Positions 30,711-46,228 of a DNA stretch of 64,000 nucleotides are shown here, piece by piece (the first letter of the stretch is position 1; every line of letters starts with the position of its first letter). The position numbers and the translations under genes were made by a program. The stretch is from the NCBI GenBank assembly GCA_050950505.1, contig JBMNHS010000001.1, forward strand, positions 864,001-928,000, read 5' to 3'. Source of the stretch: Candidatus Methanomethylophilaceae archaeon (GTDB lineage: Archaea > Thermoplasmatota > Thermoplasmata > Methanomassiliicoccales > Methanomethylophilaceae). The notes under the pieces are model-generated. The model did not search any database. It worked only from the letters and a program-made list of their open reading frames with translations, and was not told the origin of the DNA.

Positions 30711-32495
30711 TCAATCAGACGGTCCGTTCCAATCTTTCGGTCCGTATTCATCAAGATACTGGCCGTGTGTGGCCGGGGCCCATACGGTAGTGGTCAGATC
30801 GATGTGTCCGTAAGCCAATCCGGCATACAGCGGACCCGCGGTAACCTGTCGGGTCTCAACCGTGTATCCCAGTTCTTCCAGCAAATGCTTCAGCACGTTC
30901 GTGGATCCCACGGCACAGGACCAATCAACAAGACCGAGAACTATATTTCCGCGACTCTCGCCGACATTCAAATCCTTCAGCCATTTTTCTTTGATATCCT
31001 CATTTTCCGTCAGCCACATCAAAGCAGATTCAGAGATGTCCGATCCGTCTTTCCGATCTTCGATAAACTCCAGAAGTCCGTTGAACTCATCGACGGAATA
31101 CGAATATCTGCTCATCAACAAAGCAAGATCCGCATCATTTTTCAATAATCCGTTCCTGGCCCAGGACTGTATGGATTCGGCTTCTCCGTAAACCCCCAAA
31201 TCATCTTCCAGATAGATCATTTCATATTTTGATGCGGCCCAATGGGGATCCCACAAAGTCACAACGATGTATTCGTTGTTCTCATAAGCCGCTTTAAGGC
31301 TGGTAAGCATTCCCGCTTCCGAACTCGATTGAAGTTCAAAATTCAAACCATAATCTTCTATGGCCTGTTCGGTCATGTTCATGATGCCCGCTCCGGAATC
31401 GATACCGATAATTTTTCCTTTGAAAGCATCGAAGTGAGTGTCAAGATCGGAAACGGTTCTCACTCCGAGCATGTCGTACGTATACGTGGTAACGGCCAAA
31501 CCCAGTTTGGCACCGTTATCGAGAACATCGCCCGCAAATTCTATGTCTTCCATCTTGTCTTCATCGACAAAGAAAAACGCGCCGGCGCTGACCACAAGAA
31601 ATACAGCAAGTACGCCGGTGCCGATTTTTAAGGTTCTCATTGTATCCTTTTTGCTTCTTGACACAAAAACTTCAGGTTCCGTTTTGGTAAACGATTGTGT
31701 GAGTCTGTCCAGAGTCATCGCTATCAATACCACGGCAAGACCCGCTTCGAATCCCACGGCGATATCGATCCGGTTCAATGCGTACACAATATCTCCGCCG
31801 AGTCCGCCTCCGCCGATCATGGCGGCGATGACAACCATCGACAATGAGAGCATGATGCATTGGTTGATTCCGGTCATTATTGACGGCATTGCGATGGGAA
31901 GCTGAACTTTGGTAAGTTTGTCCCATTTCGTGGAACCGAAGGCATCGGCCACCTCGTTCATCTCTTCGGGAACCTGACGGATTCCCAGGTTGGTCAGCCT
32001 CACTACGGGAGGCATTGCGAAAATGACAGTTGCGATGACTCCCGGCACGGCACCCAATCCGAAGAAGATTATGGCCGGTATAAGGTAAACGAAAGCGGGC
32101 ATCGTCTGCATAAAGTCCATGACGGCTTTGATTACGGTATTCGAACTCTCGCTGTTGGATGCCCAGATTCCCAGCGGAATCGCAATGGCAACCGCCACCA
32201 GAGTCGACACGAGAACCATCGTGAGGGTATCAATGGAACTCTCCCAGTACCCCATGTAGTTTATGACGGCGAAGGCAAGACCGATCAACAACGGCAACAC
32301 GAGCCGTTTGGTAATCAGAATTGAAATGAAAATAAGCAGTATTATGAAAACCAGCGGACCGGGATAACTCAGGATTCCTCCCACCATGTTGATGAGGCCG
32401 TCCAGAAATCTGCTCAGAAGACTCAAAAGCCCGCCGAAATAAACTTCGATAAAATCCACAACGGTTATGGCCGCTTCGCCGACGACGGAAGTCAT
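30711..32495 (-). CDS. Glycine betaine/proline ABC transporter permease fused to substrate-binding domain (OpuABC/ProWX)
   Basis: MDFMQTMPAFVYLIP, RLTNLGIRQVP, GINQCIMLSLSMVVIA, then GIDSGAGIM, WDPHW. Confidence 0.92.
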   Translation of the reverse strand: MTSVVGEAAITVVDFIEVYFGGLLSLLSRFLDGLINMVGGILSYPGPLVFIILLIFISILITKRLVLPLLIGLAFAVINYMGYWESSIDTLTMVLVSTLVAVAIAIPLGIWASNSESSNTVIKAVMDFMQTMPAFVYLIPAIIFFGLGAVPGVIATVIFAMPPVVRLTNLGIRQVPEEMNEVADAFGSTKWDKLTKVQLPIAMPSIMTGINQCIMLSLSMVVIAAMIGGGGLGGDIVYALNRIDIAVGFEAGLAVVLIAMTLDRLTQSFTKTEPEVFVSRSKKDTMRTLKIGTGVLAVFLVVSAGAFFFVDEDKMEDIEFAGDVLDNGAKLGLAVTTYTYDMLGVRTVSDLDTHFDAFKGKIIGIDSGAGIMNMTEQAIEDYGLNFELQSSSEAGMLTSLKAAYENNEYIVVTLWDPHWAASKYEMIYLEDDLGVYGEAESIQSWARNGLLKNDADLALLMSRYSYSVDEFNGLLEFIEDRKDGSDISESALMWLTENEDIKEKWLKDLNVGESRGNIVLGLVDWSCAVGSTNVLKHLLEELGYTVETRQVTAGPLYAGLAYGHIDLTTTVWAPATHGQYLDEYGPKDWNGPSD

Positions 32496-33886
32496 TCTTC
32501 ACTGCCCCCGTTCAAAGTGTCGGCGGCCACCGACGGACTGACCGTTCCCAAAAACAATCCGTTTTCATCCACGACGGGTATGGGGAAATCGGTGGTGACC
32601 ATAATCTGTATGACATCGCTCATCGGCGAGTCAGGTCCGACAGTGGGTGTTTCGATGATGATGTTCGACAGATCGGATTCTCCGAACTTCACTCCGCGGA
32701 GTATGTCGTCGGATTCGACTCTGCCTATGAAACGGTTGTTTCGGTCTATGACAAGCATGTCGTTTCGGTCAAGACGATCCATGATTCTCAGTGCCGTCCG
32801 GGGCCCCTGAGTGACATACAGAATGTTTCTGGGTCTTCTCATGAACAGTTCCGCGGTAAGGATTTTCGTACGGTCGACTTCTTTCACGAACCTGCTTACG
32901 TATTCATCGGCCGGATTCTGAAGAATATCCTCCGCCCGCCCAATCTGTACGATTTTACCGTCTTTCATCAATGCGATGCGGTCTCCGAGTTTGAGAGCCT
33001 CGTCAAGATCGTGAGTCACGAACACCACGGTTTTTCCGAGTTTGGATTGAATTTTGATCAATTCATCCTGCATATCATTTCTTATCAACGGGTCCAAAGC
33101 GCTGAACGCTTCGTCCATGAATAGTATGTCCGGGTCCGTGGCCAAAGCTCTGGCCAATCCCACTCTTTGCCGCATGCCGCCGCTTAAATCGGCGGGCATG
33201 CTTTCTTCATAACCTGCAAGGCCTACGAGCTCAATCGTCTCTTCGGACCTTTTAAGCCGTTCTTCTTCGCAGACGTTCTGCATTTCCAAACCGTAAGCAA
33301 CATTGTTCAGAATATCTCTGTGGGGTATGAGCGCAAAATTCTGGAAAACCATTGACATTTTCTTTCGTCTGACCAATCTAAGATCGTCTTCGTCCAAGGA
33401 TGTGAAATCCAAACCGTCAATGTACACTTTGCCCGAGGTGGGCTCGATCAGACGGTTCATACAACGTTCCAAAGTGGATTTTCCGGAACCGGAAAGTCCC
33501 ATCAGGACGAATATTTCACCTTCCATGACATCAAAAGAAACGTCGTACAAACCGACGTTGTTGGAAGTGCGACTTTGAACTTCCTCTTTACTGTGACCTT
33601 GTTCCAGAAGCTGCAACGCTTCCTCGTGATGCCTTCCGTATATTTTGGACAGTTTTTCAACTCTGATTATCACACGATTGCCTTCCGTGTCCCGGATGGC
33701 GTCGACGCCTTCGAAAATATCGTCGGCGGTTTGCCTCTCCTTCTTGGAAGGGTGATATTTTTTTGTGAAGTTTTTGACGGATCCCTTTACGCGGGTTCCG
33801 ATTCTGCTCATATTTTCAGATAAAAGCCGGTTGAACTCGTCGTCCATGGCTTTGATCGGTCTCTTTGTGTCTATCTTTGAAGACAT
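32492..33886 (-). CDS. opuAA: Glycine betaine/proline ABC transporter ATPase with CBS pair
   Basis: MGLSGSGKST, LSGGMRQRVGLARALA, MDEAFSALDPLIR, C-terminal CBS domains. Confidence 0.92.
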   Translation of the reverse strand: MSSKIDTKRPIKAMDDEFNRLLSENMSRIGTRVKGSVKNFTKKYHPSKKERQTADDIFEGVDAIRDTEGNRVIIRVEKLSKIYGRHHEEALQLLEQGHSKEEVQSRTSNNVGLYDVSFDVMEGEIFVLMGLSGSGKSTLERCMNRLIEPTSGKVYIDGLDFTSLDEDDLRLVRRKKMSMVFQNFALIPHRDILNNVAYGLEMQNVCEEERLKRSEETIELVGLAGYEESMPADLSGGMRQRVGLARALATDPDILFMDEAFSALDPLIRNDMQDELIKIQSKLGKTVVFVTHDLDEALKLGDRIALMKDGKIVQIGRAEDILQNPADEYVSRFVKEVDRTKILTAELFMRRPRNILYVTQGPRTALRIMDRLDRNDMLVIDRNNRFIGRVESDDILRGVKFGESDLSNIIIETPTVGPDSPMSDVIQIMVTTDFPIPVVDENGLFLGTVSPSVAADTLNGGSEE

Positions 33887-34568: not shown

Positions 34569-34760
34569 GAGGTGAGACCCAATTTCAAAACGTAAAGACA
34601 CTAGGATCTGCGGCGAAGACATGAACGAGGCATTATGTTCGTTGGTAGAGAAATGGCCGGTCGGCACCTCTCGATGCGGATAAGCGAAATTCATGTCTGC
34701 AAGACCCGACTGATGACCGCAACAAACCCCCTGCCCTTTGGGGCAGGGATTTCTTTCTCT
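34569..34760 (+). ncRNA. Candidate pseudoknotted RNA/leader with terminal hairpin upstream of cas3
   Basis: Stems GAGGTG/CACCTC and TGCGG/CCGCA, 9-bp cross pairing AGACATGAA/TTCATGTCT, hairpin CCCTGCCC-TTTG-GGGCAGGG plus pyrimidine tract; TATATATA about 25 nt upstream. Confidence 0.45.
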
Positions 34761-34858
34761 CTGAACATTTCTCTCGGTTTACACATTCTGAGATTTTTAT
34801 CGTCTGTTTATATAGAGTTATACGCTACCGTTAAATGCAAACATATTGCTGAATCAGT

Positions 34859-37660
34859 ATGAACTCCGTCGGAGGGGATGTAAAGACCAATCGGGTTCCT
34901 TTTGATGATTTATCTGATATGAGTACATCATTGTGGGCAAAAGTTTCACAGACCGTCGGTGATGTAAGTTGGCTTCCTCTTGTTGCTCATATGCATGACG
35001 CGGGATACGTTTCGTAGTGTATTTGGAGAAGATGGCTTCCGGAGTCAACTAGAAAACTAATCGAAGATGGAATTTACACGGAGGACGGACATAAATTAAC
35101 TCCGGATGTGGTTGAACGGATTCTTAAATTCGTTTCAACAACACATGATATCGGAAAAGCCACCCCCGCTTTTCAGGGGAAAATGATTTTTCAAAATCCG
35201 GATGTTCAGATTGAATGCAGGAGAAGGTTAGACGCGTCCGGAATACCAATGAGGTATGACTTGGACAATCCGAACTTGATTCCACATTCATTTGCTTCGC
35301 AATATATCCTTGAAAGCAGAGGTATAGATCGAAGCGTTGCCTCTATTGTCGGTGGCCATCATGGCACATTTCCGAACAGAGATGAGTTTAGAAAAATAAG
35401 TTCATTTAAAAATCATACAGGCGTTGGGAACAAAAAATGGGATGACATTCACGACGAACTCTTGGGGTATTCACTTTATGTTTCAGAGTTGGATTATGAA
35501 TCCATTTCAAGTTTGAAAATTGCAGTTCATTCTCAGATATTGCTTACGGCCCTGGTGATAATGTCTGATTGGATATCAAGCAATGAGTATGATTTTCCTT
35601 ATGATGAGGAGTTCACTTATTCAAATTCAATTTTAAAAGAACGGGCCATCAAAGGATGGGACCGTCTCAGTATCCCATCTATTTGGACGCCGGACACCGA
35701 TGGTATTGTGGACATTCTTTATCAGAGTCGTTTCGGATTCAATCCCAGACCTTTTCAAAAATCCATTTTGGATATATTGAACAATATAAATTCCCCCGGA
35801 CTCATTATTTTAGAAGCACCGATGGGTGAAGGTAAGACCGAGGCTGCACTTGCGGCAGCTGAGATATTGGCAGATCGGTTTGGAAAAAGCGGGTTATTTT
35901 TCGCATTGCCGACACAGGCAACGTCTGATGGAATTTTTGACAGAGTCAAAAATTGGATGGAGAAAGCCGTGGGAAAATACAGCGATGAGAAGCACTCACT
36001 GTTTTTGGCGCATGGTAAATCCAGATTTAACGAATCATACACTTCATTGTATCAAAAGAAGTGGAACGTCGGTTCGACAAATGAAAATCACAATGGAAAC
36101 GTCATCGTTCACGATTGGTTCAATGGGAGAAAAAAAGGTATTCTTTCCGATGTTGTCGTGGGAACCGTTGATCAAATACTCATGGCAAGTTTAAAACAGA
36201 AACATCTTGTATTGAGGCATCTGGGACTTGCGAACAAAGTAGTGATAATCGACGAATGTCATGCATATGATACATACATGGGAAGTTACCTGGTAAAGAC
36301 ATTGAGGTGGCTGGGCGCATATAAAGTACCGGTGATCCTGTTATCTGCAACACTTCCCCCCAATATACGTTATGATTTTGTGAAAGGATACATGTTCTGT
36401 GGTACGAACAATGAGCCCGCGTCTCTCGATTGGGTTCATAATAAAAACTACCCCCTGTTGACTTATGCAGATTCAGAAGGGATATTTCAGAACGCTCCCG
36501 AGAGCTCGGGCCGCACAGTAAAAATCAATATCGAAAACATTTCTGATGAAGATATATTAGGGATTTTGGAAGATCACACTTCTGAGGGGGGATTTGTGGG
36601 CATAATATTAAACACAGTTAATCGAGCACAAGAATTATCTAAAAAGCTTTCAGATCGCTTCGGCGAAGAGCAGATTCAACTGATACATTCCCGTTTTACT
36701 AACATAGATCGTTCCGTGAAAGAAGCAAAACTTCTCGAAATTCTTGATAAAGGAAATCGATTATCTCCCGGAAATAGGTTATTTGTCATAGGTACGCAAG
36801 TAATAGAACAATCTCTCGATTTGGATTTTGATTTACTTATAACTGATTTATGTCCTATGGATCTCCTGATACAACGTATGGGAAGACTGCACAGACATAT
36901 TCGAAAAAGATCTGCGAAAATGCATCTTCCATTGTGTTATGTTTTGGACAATGGTAAAGGGGATTTCGAACCGGGCGCCGAGAGCGTTTACGGAAAATAT
37001 CACCTTATGAACTCGAGAGAATTGCTCAGGTTACGAAAAACTATCAATTTCCCTGATGAAATTCCTTTTTTGGTGCATGCGGCATACGACGTCAACGGAA
37101 TTCCCATGCCGGAGGCCCTCAGGGACGAATATGATTGCGCGCACAAAGAATTGGAACAAAAGATGATCGATAAAGAACGCAGAGCAAAGGTTTTCCAAAT
37201 CAAACATCCTGAAAAAACGAAAAATCTCATGGGTTGGACGGAGGGTTCGGGAAGTGATACTGAAAGGGCTGCACAGGCAACAGTCAGGGATGTAAACAGT
37301 TCTTTGGAAGTAATCGTTGTCCGAAAAGACGATGAAGGAAATTTTAGAATGATTTCATCTGTGTCGGAGGATGACGGTTCTGTGATTCCTTCAGATTCGG
37401 TTCCTGATGGAAAATTGGCCTTCAGGCTTGCAGGATGCAAAGTCTCTCTTCCCGGATTTCTGTCTGCAGATTGGAAAATAGATGAAACGATACGTTATCT
37501 CGAAATGAGAAACAGTAAAGAAATTCCCAAATGTTGGCAGGAATCGGAATGGCTGAACGGAGAATTATTCTTGTTGCTTGATAACAGCGGTATCACAACT
37601 GTTATATCATATTCACTGAGGTATGACACCAAGTTCGGGTTGATGATGGTTTATGAATGA
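34859..37660 (+). CDS. cas3: CRISPR type I-E Cas3 (HD nuclease + SF2 helicase) with in-frame TAG at 35015-35017 (probable pyrrolysine)
   Basis: Upstream in-frame segment SLWAK...WLPLVAHMHDAGYVS*CIWRRWLP continues into HDIGKATPAFQ, APMGEGKTEAAL, DECHAYD, LSAT, QRMGRLHRH. Start may be 34859 or 34919. Confidence 0.88.
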
Positions 37661-39221
37661 TGTCGATTTCAATCTCCTGTACGAGCCGTGGATATCTGTA
37701 ATGGACTATGAAGGAAAAATTCTTCAAATGGGTATCATGGATACGTTGAATCAAGCTCATAAAATCAAATCATTGGCTGGGGAAACCCCGACACAGGATG
37801 TAACGATTATACGTTTATTACTGGCAATAATATCTGCAATTTATCTTCGGACGGACTCTGATGGGACAAAGGCCCATTTGACGGACGAAGAGGATGCCGT
37901 TGAAAGATGGGGTCGATTATGGGAAAGAAACCGATTTGATTCCGAACACGTTCAGCAGTATCTGGTTGGATTCGAAGACAGATTCTATTTGTTCCACCCC
38001 AAATTTCCCTTTTATCAATCTCCTATTGAAAAAGGTACAGAGTATACATCACCCAAACTCATCGGAGATCTTCTGGAAAGCAGTAATAAACTTCGATTGT
38101 TCAGTAACAGAAACGGTGCCGGCAAAGTCAAAATCTCTTACGCTGAGGCGGCACGCTGGATACTTCATCTGAACGCGTTCGATGACACCTCTGCAAAGCC
38201 TACGGTAAGGGGAGGCAATATGCCATCTCCGGGTGCAGGGTGGTTGGGCAAGTTAGGTCTTATATATGCGGAAGGAAAGAATCTCTTTGAAACTCTGATG
38301 CTGAATTTTGTAATGACCGATCATAATTATGATCCTTTTCCGGATGGAAAGGCCATATGGGAGTCCAGCCCCCGCATCGAGGAAAGGGTAATCATACCCA
38401 TGCCCGAAAGTCCGTTGGAAATAATGACATTACAATCCCGCAGAATATTGTTGAAGCGTGAAGAGGGTTTCGTAACAGGATATATTCTGATGGGCGGGGA
38501 CATAGTTGACAGAGAAAATGCTCTGATAGAGCAAATGACTGTGTGGAGAAAGGATAAAACGGGCGCATGGTTGCCTAAAAGACACGATCCATCCCGATTG
38601 ATGTGGAGGGATTTTTCCGCAATGATGTCAGGATTTGAAGATAATATAAAACCCGGCGTTGTAAGATGGATTTCTTCACTCGTAGCGGAAGACTTGCTTC
38701 CGGATGAATTTTTAACCTTCAGAATCACAGGAATAAAATACGGAGATAAGGATTTTTTTGCCGAAGACACGATAGACGACGGAATGGTATTCAATGCCGA
38801 ACTTCTGAGTTCTCTCGGAGAATCATGGATTCATAGAATTTCAAACCTGATAAAGAGAACAGAAGAATCCATCTATGCCTTCGGTACGTTCGCACGAAAT
38901 TTATCAATTGACAGCGGCAACGACGCGGAAGGTAAAAGTGCAAAAAATGCTTCCGCATCTGCAAGAGAAATGGCATATTTCCATTTGGATATGCCTTTCA
39001 GACGATGGCTTCAATCTATAAATCCCGTGTCTGATGATGAAGAGAGCCGGTTGAATGAGTGGACCGGGTTAGTATACTCTGTTTTGGTGGACAATCTCGG
39101 AAAACAATTACTTGAGGATGCAGGAGTCCAGGCCATGGTGGGCAGCAGTCTGCAAAACAATTCAATTTCCAGGTACAGACTGTTCAGAAACAGTGTTCGC
39201 AAGATTCTTAGAGGTGATTAA
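37653..39221 (+). CDS. cse1: Type I-E Cascade large subunit Cas8e/Cse1
   Basis: FNLLYEPWI, DRFYLFHPKFPFYQ, GWLGKLG, GKNLFETLMLN. Confidence 0.92.
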   Translation: MNDVDFNLLYEPWISVMDYEGKILQMGIMDTLNQAHKIKSLAGETPTQDVTIIRLLLAIISAIYLRTDSDGTKAHLTDEEDAVERWGRLWERNRFDSEHVQQYLVGFEDRFYLFHPKFPFYQSPIEKGTEYTSPKLIGDLLESSNKLRLFSNRNGAGKVKISYAEAARWILHLNAFDDTSAKPTVRGGNMPSPGAGWLGKLGLIYAEGKNLFETLMLNFVMTDHNYDPFPDGKAIWESSPRIEERVIIPMPESPLEIMTLQSRRILLKREEGFVTGYILMGGDIVDRENALIEQMTVWRKDKTGAWLPKRHDPSRLMWRDFSAMMSGFEDNIKPGVVRWISSLVAEDLLPDEFLTFRITGIKYGDKDFFAEDTIDDGMVFNAELLSSLGESWIHRISNLIKRTEESIYAFGTFARNLSIDSGNDAEGKSAKNASASAREMAYFHLDMPFRRWLQSINPVSDDEESRLNEWTGLVYSVLVDNLGKQLLEDAGVQAMVGSSLQNNSISRYRLFRNSVRKILRGD

Positions 39222-39222
39222 T

Positions 39223-39819
39223 TTGACAAAATCTGATATGATATATAATTTTGTTAATGAGAAGATAGGCATATTGCAAACGGGAAGTCCCTGGTCTAAA
39301 GCAATGTTGGCAAAATTAAGAAGAGGAGTGGGTAAGGAACCTTCAGAATCATACGAGACGTGGGAAATCACGTTAAACGGGATTCCTGAGGAGTTGACCG
39401 GTTTTGAAGGAGTCGGAGATTTTGAGGCCAATGAGGCAGAAATGGCAATACACGTGGCTTTGACGTTATACGCACTTCATCAACAAGGTAACTCATTGCC
39501 GGTGAATTCATACAATAAATCCTTTGCCGCATCCATAAGAAGTCTCATAAATACTGACAAGTCCAATGAGGATGCAATCAAAAGACGGTTTGACGCAATC
39601 ATCACATCCGATACCTTGATGGAATTATCAACTCATGCCAGAGGACTTGTTCAGTTGATGAAAGCATCGGAGAACACATCATTCAATTACCCCTTATTTG
39701 CAAAAGATCTCTATTTCTTCCAATATCCGGAAGGTAAAAAAACAGTTCGTTTGCGATGGGGGCTGGATTTTTATAAAGTACGTATGAACGAACCTATGAA
39801 AAAGGAGGAAGAAGAGTGA
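39223..39819 (+). CDS. cse2: Type I-E small subunit Cas11/Cse2
   Basis: LAKLRRGVGK, ALTLYALHQQ, RRFDA, WGLDFY; TTG start after GAGGTGA. Confidence 0.9.
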   Translation: MTKSDMIYNFVNEKIGILQTGSPWSKAMLAKLRRGVGKEPSESYETWEITLNGIPEELTGFEGVGDFEANEAEMAIHVALTLYALHQQGNSLPVNSYNKSFAASIRSLINTDKSNEDAIKRRFDAIITSDTLMELSTHARGLVQLMKASENTSFNYPLFAKDLYFFQYPEGKKTVRLRWGLDFYKVRMNEPMKKEEEE

Positions 39820-40922
39820 AAAACAGAATATTTGTAGATTTGCACGTTATTCAAACAGTACCGCCCAGTTGTGTGAACAGGGATGATACGGGAAGCCCCA
39901 AAACGGCTATGTACGGCGGAGTTCGCAGAGCCCGTGTTTCCTCTCAGAGCTGGAAAAAGGCAATCAGAGATCAGTTCAAGGAAGAATTTGACGAATCTGA
40001 GTTGGGAATACGCACCTTGAACGCAGTCGATGTGATTGCTGACAAAATACGTTCCATCGATACAGCCCTCTCCAAAGAAGAAGCGGTGGGGAAAGCAGCA
40101 GGCGTTCTTAGAGTCGCAGGTATTAAATTGGACACGAAGAAGAAAAAAGATACGGAGTCAGAAGAAAATCTCCGTACGGGAGCGTTATTTTTTATCAGTT
40201 CCAAACAGGCAGAGAATATGGCCGCTTTGGCGTTGACTGAGAACTATTCTAAAAAAGACGCACAAGAGGCGCTGAACAAAGGCAACGGAGTAGACATAGC
40301 TCTGTTCGGCAGAATGGTCGCCGACGATCCGTCATTGAATTCCGACGCATCAGCCCAAGTTGCTCATGCGATATCAACTCATAAGGTTGACACGGAATAC
40401 GATTATTTTACGGCAATAGATGATAGGTCTCCCGCAGACAACGCGGGTGCCGGAATGATCGGTACCGTTGAATTCAATTCTTCTACGCTATACCGGTACG
40501 CGACAGTTTCAGTTCATGACCTGTACAACAGATTGGAATGCAATAAAGAGATGACTTCGAAAGCCATAACCGAATTCATAAAAGCATTCATGCTCAGTAT
40601 GCCCACAGGAAAACAGAATACGTTTGCAAACAGAACGGTTCCCAATGCCGCTATAATCGCAATCAGAGACGATCAACCAATCAATCTCGTCAGCGCATTC
40701 GAATCTCCCGTAGGTACAAACAAATCCTCAATCGGGTACCTGGACGAATCAATAGACAGATTAATCAAAGAAAAGGAAGAAGCAACTTCTTCCTTTGTCA
40801 AGAAATCCAAGAAAACTTGGCAGATCGGAAAAGGTCTTGATGCATTGGGGCCTTCTGCTGATGTGGAAACCACCATTTCCGAAATAGAAGACTACCTCAA
40901 TGGGGAATTAGGTGAATGGTGA
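39816..40922 (+). CDS. cas7: Type I-E Cas7/Cse4
   Basis: PPSCVNRDDTGSPKTA, RARVSSQSWK, DIALFGRMVA, DYFTAIDD, PTGKQNTFA. Confidence 0.95.
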   Translation: MKNRIFVDLHVIQTVPPSCVNRDDTGSPKTAMYGGVRRARVSSQSWKKAIRDQFKEEFDESELGIRTLNAVDVIADKIRSIDTALSKEEAVGKAAGVLRVAGIKLDTKKKKDTESEENLRTGALFFISSKQAENMAALALTENYSKKDAQEALNKGNGVDIALFGRMVADDPSLNSDASAQVAHAISTHKVDTEYDYFTAIDDRSPADNAGAGMIGTVEFNSSTLYRYATVSVHDLYNRLECNKEMTSKAITEFIKAFMLSMPTGKQNTFANRTVPNAAIIAIRDDQPINLVSAFESPVGTNKSSIGYLDESIDRLIKEKEEATSSFVKKSKKTWQIGKGLDALGPSADVETTISEIEDYLNGELGEW

Positions 40923-41631
40923 CATTATTGTTGAGATTGGCCGGCCCTTTGCAATCCTGGGGGGTGGGTTCCAAGTTTGAAACCCGCACTACCTCGAAAG
41001 CACCCTCAAAGAGCGGAGTCTTGGGAATGGTCGCTTCTGCAATGGGACGCGACAGAGAAGATTCTCTCGATGATTTGGCATCTTTGAAATTCGGAGTGCG
41101 GATAGATCAGGAAGGAACGATTTTAAAGGATTTTCACACAGCGCACAGCGCGAGTCGCAAGACGGCATACGTGACAAACAGACATTATCTCGAAAATGGG
41201 TGTTTTTTAGTAGGCCTTGAAGGTGATGAAACATTACTGTTTAGAATCGAAGATGCGATAAAAAATCCCTTTTATCCTCTTTACCTGGGACGCAGGTCTT
41301 GTCCACCTACGGGCAGAATGATTTTGGGATTCAGAGACAAAGTGCTGTATGAAGCACTGAGGGATGAGCCGTGGTTGGCGTCAGAGTGGTATCGAAAACG
41401 GACTCCCTCCAATGTAATGTTGGAGATTGTATGCGAAGATGATTCCGATTTATTTTCGGAATCTGTCCGGGATGTGCCCCTCAGTTTTAGCCAAACCAGA
41501 AGAAAGCATGGTTTCAGGAATGTAAGAAGAGTTCTTGACGGAAAGACAATCGAAAATTCCGATTCCGGAATCAAAAAACCCATGAATGCACAATTCGATC
41601 CAATGTTCGAAGTAAAGAAGGAGGTTCGTTA

Positions 41632-41632
<1 letters not shown>
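40916..41632 (+). CDS. cas5: Type I-E Cas5
   Basis: LLLRLAGPLQSWG, PSKSGVLG, LYLGRRSCPP. Confidence 0.95.
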
Positions 41633-44047
<2,415 letters not shown>

Positions 44048-44133: not shown

Positions 44134-46228
44134 GTGGTCCCCGCGAAAGCGGGGGTGATCCTCATTCATGAAGCCTATCAGACGAAAACTCGGTGGTCCC
44201 CGCGAAAGCGGGGGTGATCCTATGAGAGACAGATAGAGATTATCGACAGGTGTGGTCCCCGCGAAAGCGGGGGTGATCCCCATGTTCATTGACACGCCAA
44301 TCGCAACAAGAAGTGGTCCCCGCGAAAGCGGGGGTGATCCTATTCTCCAACGACATCTTATCAGTTGCTATTCTAGTGGTCCCCGCGAAAGCGGGGGTGA
44401 TCCTCTCAGGCAACGTCACTTGTGGTATCCGACGTGTGGTCCCCGCGAAAGCGGGGGTGATCCTGGTAAGGTTCTTTTTCGTCCTCAAGTAGCACGTGGT
44501 CCCCGCGAAAGCGGGGGTGATCCTACGTAGCAACCATATGTTACGGGATGATATCCTTTGTGGTCCCCGCGAAAGCGGGGGTGATCCTCGGGTACATATC
44601 GTTCCTGATTATCTGGTTGAGTGGTCCCCGCGAAAGCGGGGGTGATCCTCAGGTGTAGATTCTGGACGGCTATAATCAGTGTGGTCCCCGCGAAAGCGGG
44701 GGTGATCCTCAGCACTGATTACAGCGAGAATGTCATACTAGTGGTCCCCGCGAAAGCGGGGGTGATCCTAGGTCCAGAACGACTTTTAAGACGTCTAATA
44801 GGGTGGTCCCCGCGAAAGCGGGGGTGATCCTAGTCCTTGACCGTCAGATATCAACATGTAGGTGGTCCCCGCGAAAGCGGGGGTGATCCTGAGAACTCGC
44901 AGCCGTCAACCGAGGAGGAGTGGTCCCCGCGAAAGCGGGGGTGATCCTATCAATAAGACTGTCCTATTATGTCGAATCGGGTGGTCCCCGCGAAAGCGGG
45001 GGTGATCCCCTCATCGTATGATCATCGAACTTCCACGGTGGTCCCCGCGAAAGCGGGGGTGATCCTGCAGCTGGTCAAGCACGATATAGGAAATGGTGGT
45101 CCCCGCGAAAGCGGGGGTGATCCTCTGTGATCTTCAACCGTTCCAAGTACCTCATTCTTTAAGTGGTCCCCGCGAAAGCGGGGGTGATCCTCGTCTAGAC
45201 TTCGCACTCTCGGTCAAGTCGGTGGTCCCCGCGAAAGCGGGGGTGATCCTACTTACATGTCTGCCGGAAATGATCGGTGCAATGACATGCGTGGTCCCCG
45301 CGAAAGCGGGGGTGATCCTAGATATGACTTAATTGATCTCATGTAATCAGTGGTCCCCGCGAAAGCGGGGGTGATCCCATACCCATGCGTCTTTATCGCG
45401 GAGTCTGGTGGTCCCCGCGAAAGCGGGGGTGATCCTGAGGCAACCAATAGCAATTAAGGGTCAGGTCGGTGGTCCCCGCGAAAGCGGGGGTGATCCTACT
45501 TGACCAAAGACGGTTCAGGATGCCGATTGGTGGTCCCCGCGAAAGCGGGGGTGATCCTGACCACCTACACCACAACCCAGATATCTGATGGTGGTCCCCG
45601 CGAAAGCGGGGGTGATCCCTTGGTCAAATCGACGGCGAATTTTGTCGGCTCGTGGTCCCCGCGAAAGCGGGGGTGATCCTACTTGCAGGCTATTAGCCGT
45701 GTAATGTCGGGCGTGGTCCCCGCGAAAGCGGGGGTGATCCCTCAGTAGGATAGTCAAGGCGACTGACGGCGTAGTGGTCCCCGCGAAAGCGGGGGTGATC
45801 CCGCATACCGCGAACGCAGGCTGGGGAGAACTGGGTGGTCCCCGCGAAAGCGGGGGTGATCCTATCCCGATAACGATTAGAGACAGGGAAATCAAGTGGT
45901 CCCCGCGAAAGCGGGGGTGATCCTTATATGCATATCTTGTAATATCTCTGTATGCCGTGGTCCCCGCGAAAGCGGGGGTGATTCTTGCTTGTAGAGTCCG
46001 CCGAGTTTTTTCATGTGGTGGTCCCCGCGAAAGCGGGGGTGATCCTCTGCCCTGTGGGTGCGCTTATCGATGAACCCTGTGGTCCCCGCAAAAGCGGGGG
46101 TGATCCCGGATTTATTGTTTTTGCTACTGTGTACAGTATGTGGTCCCCGCGAAAGCGGGGGTGATCCTGGGAGTATGAGTTGGAAAAACACCTAGCACCG
46201 GTGGTCCCCGCGAAAGCGGGGGTGATTC
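44134..46228 (+). CRISPR. Type I-E CRISPR array, 35 repeats / 34 spacers, repeat GTGGTCCCCGCGAAAGCGGGGGTGATCC (28 nt)
   Basis: Repeat starts counted by hand from 44134 to 46201; hairpin CCCCGC-GAAA-GCGGGG; variants at repeats 31, 33 and 35. Confidence 0.99.

Follow-up and report, generated by a model that had tools for sequence, protein, structure and literature searches.

Amber (TAG) codons read as pyrrolysine (Pyl) have been described outside the methylamine methyltransferases in methanogens of the Methanomassiliicoccales, including in genes of the CRISPR-associated (Cas) proteins. An amber codon was reported in the Cas3 gene AR505_1089 of isolate ISO4-H5 (Li et al. 2016, PMC5011839). In 'Ca. 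Methanomethylophilus alvus', Borrel et al. (2014, PMC4153887) described 16 non-methyltransferase genes with an in-frame TAG, among them cas1 and the gene for digeranylgeranylglyceryl phosphate synthase, together with 1.6% TAG stops, and they argued for a constitutive Pyl cassette. Under the name 'Genetic Code 34', Kivenson et al. (2024, bioRxiv 10.1101/2024.09.30.615893) described TAG as meaning pyrrolysine genome-wide in Methanomethylophilus, Methanogranum, Methanoplasma and others; in their proteomics of M. alvi, 15 of the predicted Pyl proteins were expressed, 12 of these contained detected Pyl, and TAG was never seen to encode a different residue. The same preprint reports Pyl in Cas1 by proteomics, lists Cas2, Cas4, Cas8e and Cas10, and refers to Cas1 and Cas3 as 'previously predicted'. 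Here we analyzed a stretch of 64,000 nucleotides, the window (positions 864,001 to 928,000 of contig JBMNHS010000001.1, assembly GCA_050950505.1), from a Candidatus Methanomethylophilaceae archaeon, in which the cas3 gene of a type I-E CRISPR system carries a single in-frame TAG at codon 53. Read-through of this TAG with Pyl is very likely, and we consider it highly probable that codon 53 is an ordinary sense codon, read as Pyl, in a gene for one 933-residue Cas3. An original prediction, made from the letters of the window, had proposed a Pyl-containing nuclease whose activity is conditional.

The locus resembles the described systems closely. ISO4-H5, like the present organism, is a Methanomassiliicoccales methanogen with a pyl operon, many amber genes and an in-frame amber codon in cas3; it is a different genome, and the passage of PMC5011839 that mentions the codon gives no position for it. 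Our survey of the family found TAGs at eight different sites in cas3, and the ISO4-H5 codon is probably an independent event. As in 'Ca. Methanomethylophilus alvus', a prenyltransferase gene of the UbiA family holds a TAG here and few long open reading frames (ORFs) end on TAG (only 0.8%); the Cas protein with a TAG in that organism is Cas1 of another CRISPR type, whereas here it is Cas3 of type I-E. The low TAG frequency, the location of most TAGs inside conserved genes and the pyl cassette are likewise shared with the 'Genetic Code 34' genomes, although the proteomic proof comes from M. alvi and the present organism is known here from its assembly alone. This gene or site may already stand in Table S12 of Kivenson et al., which gives Cas proteins with Pyl. 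Novelty is not supported for Pyl in Cas3, which the 2016 work on ISO4-H5 had already described and a 2024 paper brought up once more; we regard the finding as one more case of a described kind, already predicted for ISO4-H5, and its novelty is low.

The cas3 gene lies on the plus strand at 34859..37660. With TAG read as sense, its frame opens at the ATG at 34859-34861 and runs for 933 codons without any other stop before the TGA/TAA at 37658-37660; the TAG at 35015-35017 (context GYVS-TAG-CIWRRWLP) is the sole internal interruption, and this translation and that under translation table 11 differ at one codon. The table 11 ORF list begins cas3 at a GTG (35108..35110), the first start codon past the TAG and 30 codons beyond it, and gives a product of 850 aa. 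The original prediction that a conserved N-terminus lies upstream in the same frame, broken only by the TAG, is borne out. The Pfam Cas3_HD match (E 2.1e-39) covers residues 26-245 against profile positions 1-206 of 207, so that it begins upstream of the TAG and spans it. Further Pfam matches fall to the DEAD/ResIII helicase domains, Cas3-like_C_2 and Cas3_C, and the read-through protein exceeds the cut-offs of both NCBIfam cas3_core and cas3_HD. The nearest solved structures are the Cas3 proteins of Thermobaculum terrenum (4Q2C, E 1.4e-110) and Thermobifida fusca (4QQW and 6C66, ~1e-72), which align over residues 26-929 and 24-808, respectively, share the order of HD nuclease, two RecA-like helicase domains and C-terminal domain, and conserve the metal-ligand His; both use the standard code and have Leu at the TAG position. 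Judged by these matches, the read-through product would be a type I-E Cas3 with an HD nuclease, an SF2 helicase and a C-terminal domain.

Within the HD domain, the TAG falls between His44 and Asp47, invariant ends of the His-Met-His-Asp of codons 44-47 (34988..34999), and the remainder of the nuclease domain. In 13 aligned family Cas3 homologues, five residues ahead of the TAG (W26, K28, L41, H44 and D47) and W56 just after it never vary, and the HD domain residues H44, D47, H96, D97, H167 and H168 are likewise invariant. His44 aligns with His37 of the T. fusca protein, one of the residues holding two Fe(II) ions according to a review (PMC5965380), in agreement with the earlier proposal, which placed the first metal-binding His on the upstream side of this codon. 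A product initiated at GTG 35108 would lack residues 1-83 and therefore His44 and Asp47, and with them the first HD metal ligand; the HD domain is predicted to be complete only when the TAG is read through. A nonsense mutation would account for the same layout, with cas3 either a recent pseudogene or the source of a truncated helicase from GTG 35108 whose HD domain is missing its first metal ligand, and it is consistent with a frame that is broken under table 11 and with the presence of a GTG start 30 codons past the TAG. In addition, the open frame of one family homologue (L018, in genome G089) has no counterpart of the first ~130 residues, and thus no first HD ligand; this copy may be really truncated or decayed.

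Conservation of the TAG speaks strongly against such a lesion. A Cas3 match at E <= 1e-20 is present in 18 of the 151 family genomes, and in six of these 18 cas3 genes a TAG lies inside the match. The TAG of the present gene occupies the same alignment column as that of a same-genus cas3 (genome G003), with which it shares 60% protein identity and relative to which synonymous sites are saturated (pS 0.84-0.87); pN and pS are given in place of dN/dS ratios on account of this saturation (pS > 0.75). Between the two genes, pN is 0.40 over codons 1-52 (pS 0.84), 0.32 over codons 54-83 and 0.25 over the remainder, and on each side of the TAG the adjacent codon shows a synonymous difference (TCG/TCA and TGT/TGC). 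The 52 codons upstream of the TAG, which include five invariant residues, are thus under purifying selection. The TAG is thus older than a deep split, with the frame on both sides under purifying selection, and the shared column, the saturated synonymous sites and this selection together exclude a recent nonsense mutation. The rest of the operon is also without lesion, the adjoining CRISPR array has 35 repeats that are nearly all perfect, and TAG is not used as a stop genome-wide. The nonsense alternative that the original prediction had kept is therefore excluded as far as sequence can do so, and we assign it a very small probability.

A PylS match is present in 113 of the 151 family genomes and in all six of those whose cas3 bears a TAG. 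Of the cas3 genomes, two (95% and 83% complete) lack a PylS match, and their cas3 genes are free of internal TAGs. The closest named relatives of the protein are L076 (Candidatus Methanomethylophilaceae archaeon, 60% identity) and L077 (uncultured Methanomassiliicoccales archaeon). A search of a species collection with the single Cas3 protein found no relative; the same search with the Cas3 alignment returned 80 loci, 77 of them bacterial (33-43% identity), and none of these 77 has an internal TAG. Where TAG does occur, in three bacterial relatives, it is confined to an edge of the longest frame, the place of real stops or 5' leaders.

The TAG was also compared among independent assemblies. 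The stretch is contained wholly or partly in 20 public runs, and the contigs of four of them were compared (DNA: X5, X9 and X14; RNA: X15). Those of the three DNA runs, which come from three separate metagenome studies, cover 35015-35017 with zero differences. The X14 contig represents a strain variant, with G>A at 35014, which turns the codon preceding the TAG from TCG into the synonymous TCA, and G>T at 35044 (GAG to GAT), in which the TAG is kept. The agreement of three studies and the retention of the TAG in a variant strain show that it is not an assembly error. A check on the TAG in related strains had been suggested at the outset; it is present both in the 60%-identical orthologue and in the contigs of three studies.

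The genome possesses the equipment needed to read UAG as Pyl. The source assembly (1.33 Mb in 2 contigs, 48.8% G+C, 99.6% complete) encodes a full pylT-pylS-pylB-pylC-pylD cassette on the minus strand of contig 1 (4818-8766), in which PylS (267.1 bits, cut-off 178), PylB (435.5 bits, cut-off 348), PylC (315.5 bits, cut-off 248) and PylD (217 bits, cut-off 150) all exceed their NCBIfam cut-offs. Directly 5' of pylS, ARAGORN with a relaxed threshold identifies a candidate tRNA-Pyl of 71 nt with the anticodon CUA. Its homologues (76-97% identical) adjoin pylS in all five other genomes searched; in the resulting six-sequence alignment, 5 of 23 predicted pairs vary on both sides and still pair, and CUA is present in 6 of 6. 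A PylS N-terminal domain was looked for in the genome and not found. The presence of pylTSBCD had been named as a check on the claim, and this search came out in its favor; family placement and the cassette agree on a Pyl-decoding Methanomassiliicoccales host. Near-cognate suppression of UAG occurs in many organisms, and a near-cognate tRNA could insert Gln, Tyr, Lys or Trp at codon 53. With a dedicated CUA tRNA and a full pyl cassette in the genome, and with TAG identical in the contigs of all three studies, read-through by a near-cognate tRNA or a sequencing or assembly error is an explanation to which we give very little credence. The proteomic data described for M. alvi, in which no standard residue was found at TAG positions (bioRxiv 10.1101/2024.09.30.615893), point in the same direction.

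The behavior of TAG across the genome is consistent with a sense meaning. Among 1130 ORFs with a length of 100 aa or more, a crude set picked greedily by codon-usage score, TGA ends 870, TAA 251 and TAG only 9 (0.8%). In seven of these nine, the TAG is really internal and the coding sequence carries on: mtmB, mtbB and mttB hold it within full-length Pfam matches, and four others run on into long coding stretches, with homology that crosses the TAG or flanks it on both sides. The latter encode, on contig 1, a PLD/ResIII/DUF3427 helicase (TAG at codon 374; 1138060-1140903, minus strand), a KAP NTPase (codon 281; 255191-257419, plus strand), an AAA_14/DUF4143 ATPase (codons 286 and 328; 223352-224713, minus strand) and a Fer4 protein (codon 132; 1017040-1017732, minus strand), each with homology past the TAG. 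When TAG was counted as sense, a census of 1124 frames had 56 that hold one internally, of which 20, cas3 included, were checked against Pfam; in nearly all of the other 36, the TAG lies in the first 28 codons of the maximal frame. The census also contains the UbiA prenyltransferase gene (codon 85; contig 1, 626552-627397, minus strand), whose Pfam domain match spans the TAG. Most of the frames checked proved to be artefacts of frame extension 5' of the real start; examples rejected on this ground are the apparent internal TAGs of an M16 peptidase, TatD, an ABC ATPase, a POR subunit, AspRS, an AlaX-like protein and DHQS.

In total, at least 10 genes require TAG read-through and at most two long ORFs plausibly stop on TAG. 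A conditionally expanded code of the Acetohalobium arabaticum type, in which trimethylamine turns on the Pyl cassette, would be expected to use TAG widely as a stop, whereas here it does so in at most 2 of 1130 long ORFs. The features of the 'Genetic Code 34' group C are found instead, namely a complete pyl cassette, a TAG-ending share of no more than 5% and most TAGs internal to genes with continuing homology. Category 4, that of a long out-of-frame overlap after read-through, has at most two candidates, pylB and one contig 2 gene, in a classification made apart from the authors' pipeline. The lineage appears to have nearly eliminated TAG as a stop, which matches the published 'Genetic Code 34' state. 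Two side observations concern these other genes. Three of the five further non-methyltransferase TAG genes belong to defence-like or mobile-element-like families, as cas3 does, and the TAG of the UbiA gene is common only to an 82%-identical same-genus genome, while a second UbiA paralogue without TAG exists.

The residue itself seems free to vary. In other genera the column of codon 53 is filled by V, G, G, R, E, T, S, V, S, S, S, Q, A, T or K, and the column stands at the 89th percentile of column entropy. Pyl at residue 53 would thus be a tolerated substitution at a non-catalytic position. No stable structure follows the TAG on its 3' side (minimum free energy (MFE) -20.4 kcal/mol, shuffled sequences -20.2 on average, z = -0.07), and a search of this region for the Pyl insertion sequence (PYLIS) family gave no Rfam match at E <= 1.

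These features bear on the possibility that Cas3 is conditional, with UAG decoding tied to Pyl supply or methylamine growth, such that full-length Cas3 and interference would be switched or tuned by the Pyl machinery. In a softer version, competition between the early UAG and the release factor would keep the dose of a potentially self-toxic nuclease low. A precedent exists in a non-recoded Pyl archaeon and a bacterium that turn the Pyl system off without trimethylamine (Kivenson et al., bioRxiv 10.1101/2024.09.30.615893). However, constitutive Pyl expression has been argued to be necessary for genomes of the present kind (Borrel et al. 2014, PMC4153887; Kivenson et al. 2024, bioRxiv 10.1101/2024.09.30.615893), and Pyl peptides were detected in M. 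alvi grown on methanol plus rumen fluid (Kivenson et al. 2024). Other intact genes of the genome hold a TAG, UbiA prenyltransferase included, and neither structure nor a PYLIS match follows the TAG of cas3. Although a conditional nuclease had been proposed from the outset, that part of the proposal is left unsupported by a TAG that is almost never a stop, that lies inside other non-methyltransferase genes and that has no recoding signal after it, as well as by the published case for constitutive Pyl.

Points in favor of conditional decoding come from the density of TAG in cas3. Across the 18 type I-E(-like) operons of the family, cas3 has 8 in-gene TAGs in 15,730 aligned residues and the seven other cas genes have 2 in 31,870 (one in cas5 and one in cas6), an excess of ~8 times per codon over the operon neighbors (Fisher p 0.003, or 0.008 with the shared site counted once). 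A second TAG in the cas3 of L023/L074 falls outside the BLAST alignment and was left out of the count; a ninth candidate (L072) was dropped, as its TAG lies directly 5' of a probable Met start in a genome with no PylS match. At the cas3 rate, 3.9 TAGs would be expected in the 7,650 residues of cas8e, which evolves as fast as cas3, and none is present. The core UbiA gene, matched in 144 of the 151 genomes, has a TAG in 3 among the matches listed (7 further matches are not among them), and per codon cas3 would exceed it about 8-fold as well. The eight distinct cas3 sites (residues 29, 53, 69, 117, 119, 269, 592 and 886) also lean toward the N-terminus, with five of the eight in the first 119 residues (Kolmogorov-Smirnov (KS) test against uniform, p 0.024). 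On the other hand, the counts are small, the genomes are related, and the pattern was noticed, and the N-terminal cut-off chosen, post hoc. Moreover, all eight sites fall in variable columns (69th-95th percentile of entropy) or in a gappy loop, as neutral drift predicts. The excess is weak and serves as a lead only; that cas3 is a preferred home of UAG/Pyl codons in Methanomethylophilaceae seems doubtful, and conditional control of Cas3 by Pyl strikes us as unlikely. If the pattern were not drift, the early UAG could act as a translational throttle, so that less is made of a self-toxic nuclease-helicase than of Cascade, or as a 'code lock', so that a host or virus without Pyl decoding of UAG would gain no use from the interference nuclease on acquiring it.

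Several observations weigh against codon 53 as an ordinary Pyl codon. The tRNA-Pyl is missed by ARAGORN with default settings and appears only at the relaxed threshold, and nothing in the pylT-pylS locus matches the tRNA model of Rfam at E <= 1. Of the 18 family cas3 genes, only 2 share the TAG at codon 53. The pylB gene (contig 1, 6786-7835, minus strand) ends on TAG, and its read-through adds 29 codons, which have a negative coding score and extend into pylC, while in one contig 2 gene the TAG is followed by 2 codons and then another in-frame stop; both may truly stop on TAG, which is then maybe not 100% sense. Decoding of UAG in cas3 would also compete with the release factor. Finally, the RNA contig X15 covers 34675-34864 only, ends 5 nt into the cas3 ORF and is silent on cas3 expression and on the TAG.

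Taken together, the evidence favors reading codon 53 as an ordinary Pyl codon. In the proposed mechanism, tRNA-Pyl (CUA), charged by PylS with pyrrolysine made by PylBCD, would read codon 53, and the ribosome would yield a single 933-residue HD-nuclease/helicase Cas3. The most likely origin of the TAG is a mutation, at a helix position that varies and tolerates change, after a bacterial-type I-E system had entered a Pyl-decoding archaeon, and it would since have been inherited as a near-neutral substitution. The sequence itself shows the codon, the pyl genes with their tRNA, the pattern of TAG usage, the conservation and the agreement of independent assemblies; from these we infer the identity of the inserted residue as Pyl and no other, the synthesis of the protein and its constitutive decoding.

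The surrounding locus, in which the original prediction saw an operon free of decay, is indeed intact. On the plus strand, cas3 is followed by cas8e (cse1/casA; 37653..39221; TIGR02547, 131.3 bits, cut-off 70.05), cas11 (cse2/casB; 39112..39819; TIGR02548, 116.1 bits, residues 62-222 matched, the real start being probably further downstream), cas7 (casC; 39816..40922; TIGR01869, 291.8 bits), cas5e (casD; 40916..41632; TIGR01868, 150.8 bits), cas6e (casE; 41632..42285; TIGR01907, 89.8 bits), cas1e (42282..43250; TIGR03638, 360.1 bits) and cas2e (43247..44047), all seven without lesion. The array (44134..46228) has a 28-nt unit, and 32 of its 35 repeats are perfect (0 matches expected by chance). 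In Cas2e, the Cas2 match is limited to residues 1-84 of 266, and the unannotated C-terminal extension of ~180 residues has no Pfam or NCBIfam match; a long Cas2 (176-277 aa aligned) is also found in four related operons, as compared with ~90 aa in the rest. Upstream of cas3, a TATA-box-like motif (TTTATATA; 34807..34814, plus strand, 45 nt before the ATG) is a candidate archaeal promoter for the gene; when the upstream regions of this genome (G000) and G003 were aligned, conservation was too low for a shared promoter. The X15 metatranscriptome contig (190 nt, depth 22.5) lies in this intergenic stretch, where a G+C-rich hairpin followed by a T-rich run is seen at approximately 34738-34770. Rfam and Pfam scans of 34675-34864 gave zero family matches, and the contig could represent a small RNA, a leader or DNA carry-over. 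Just upstream, on the minus strand (30711-33886), is a choline/glycine-betaine-type ABC transporter with a ProV-like ATPase and a fused permease and binding protein, a neighbor of interest for a methylamine-using methanogen.

A complete type I-E system of bacterial style is thus situated in an archaeon. Its Cas3 has relatives in Bacillota, Actinomycetota, Synergistaceae and others at 33-43% identity, compared with 41-47% for other genera of the same archaeal family, and the I-E system occurs in only 2 of 16 genomes of the genus. As bacterial Cas3 proteins are nearly as close as the family homologues and the distribution in the genus is sparse, these observations point to inter-domain transfer and a mobile locus.

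The practical consequence of the finding lies in annotation. In the hands of standard gene callers, cas3 is cut at codon 53 and becomes an 850-residue protein minus a catalytic metal ligand; at least nine other genes of the genome are cut likewise, and gene calling in this family should treat TAG as sense. Beyond the questions of the 2014-2024 papers, the TAG of cas3 raises none. For the biology of the family, it would provide a conserved and dated example of Pyl outside the methylamine methyltransferases, in a bacterial-looking CRISPR system. The early suggestion that the TAG would inactivate the gene in recipients without Pyl is sound, since truncation at codon 53 would follow directly. A Pyl codon in such a system therefore suggests that TAGs accumulate after a gene has entered a Pyl-decoding host, and that they may then tie the gene to hosts of this kind.

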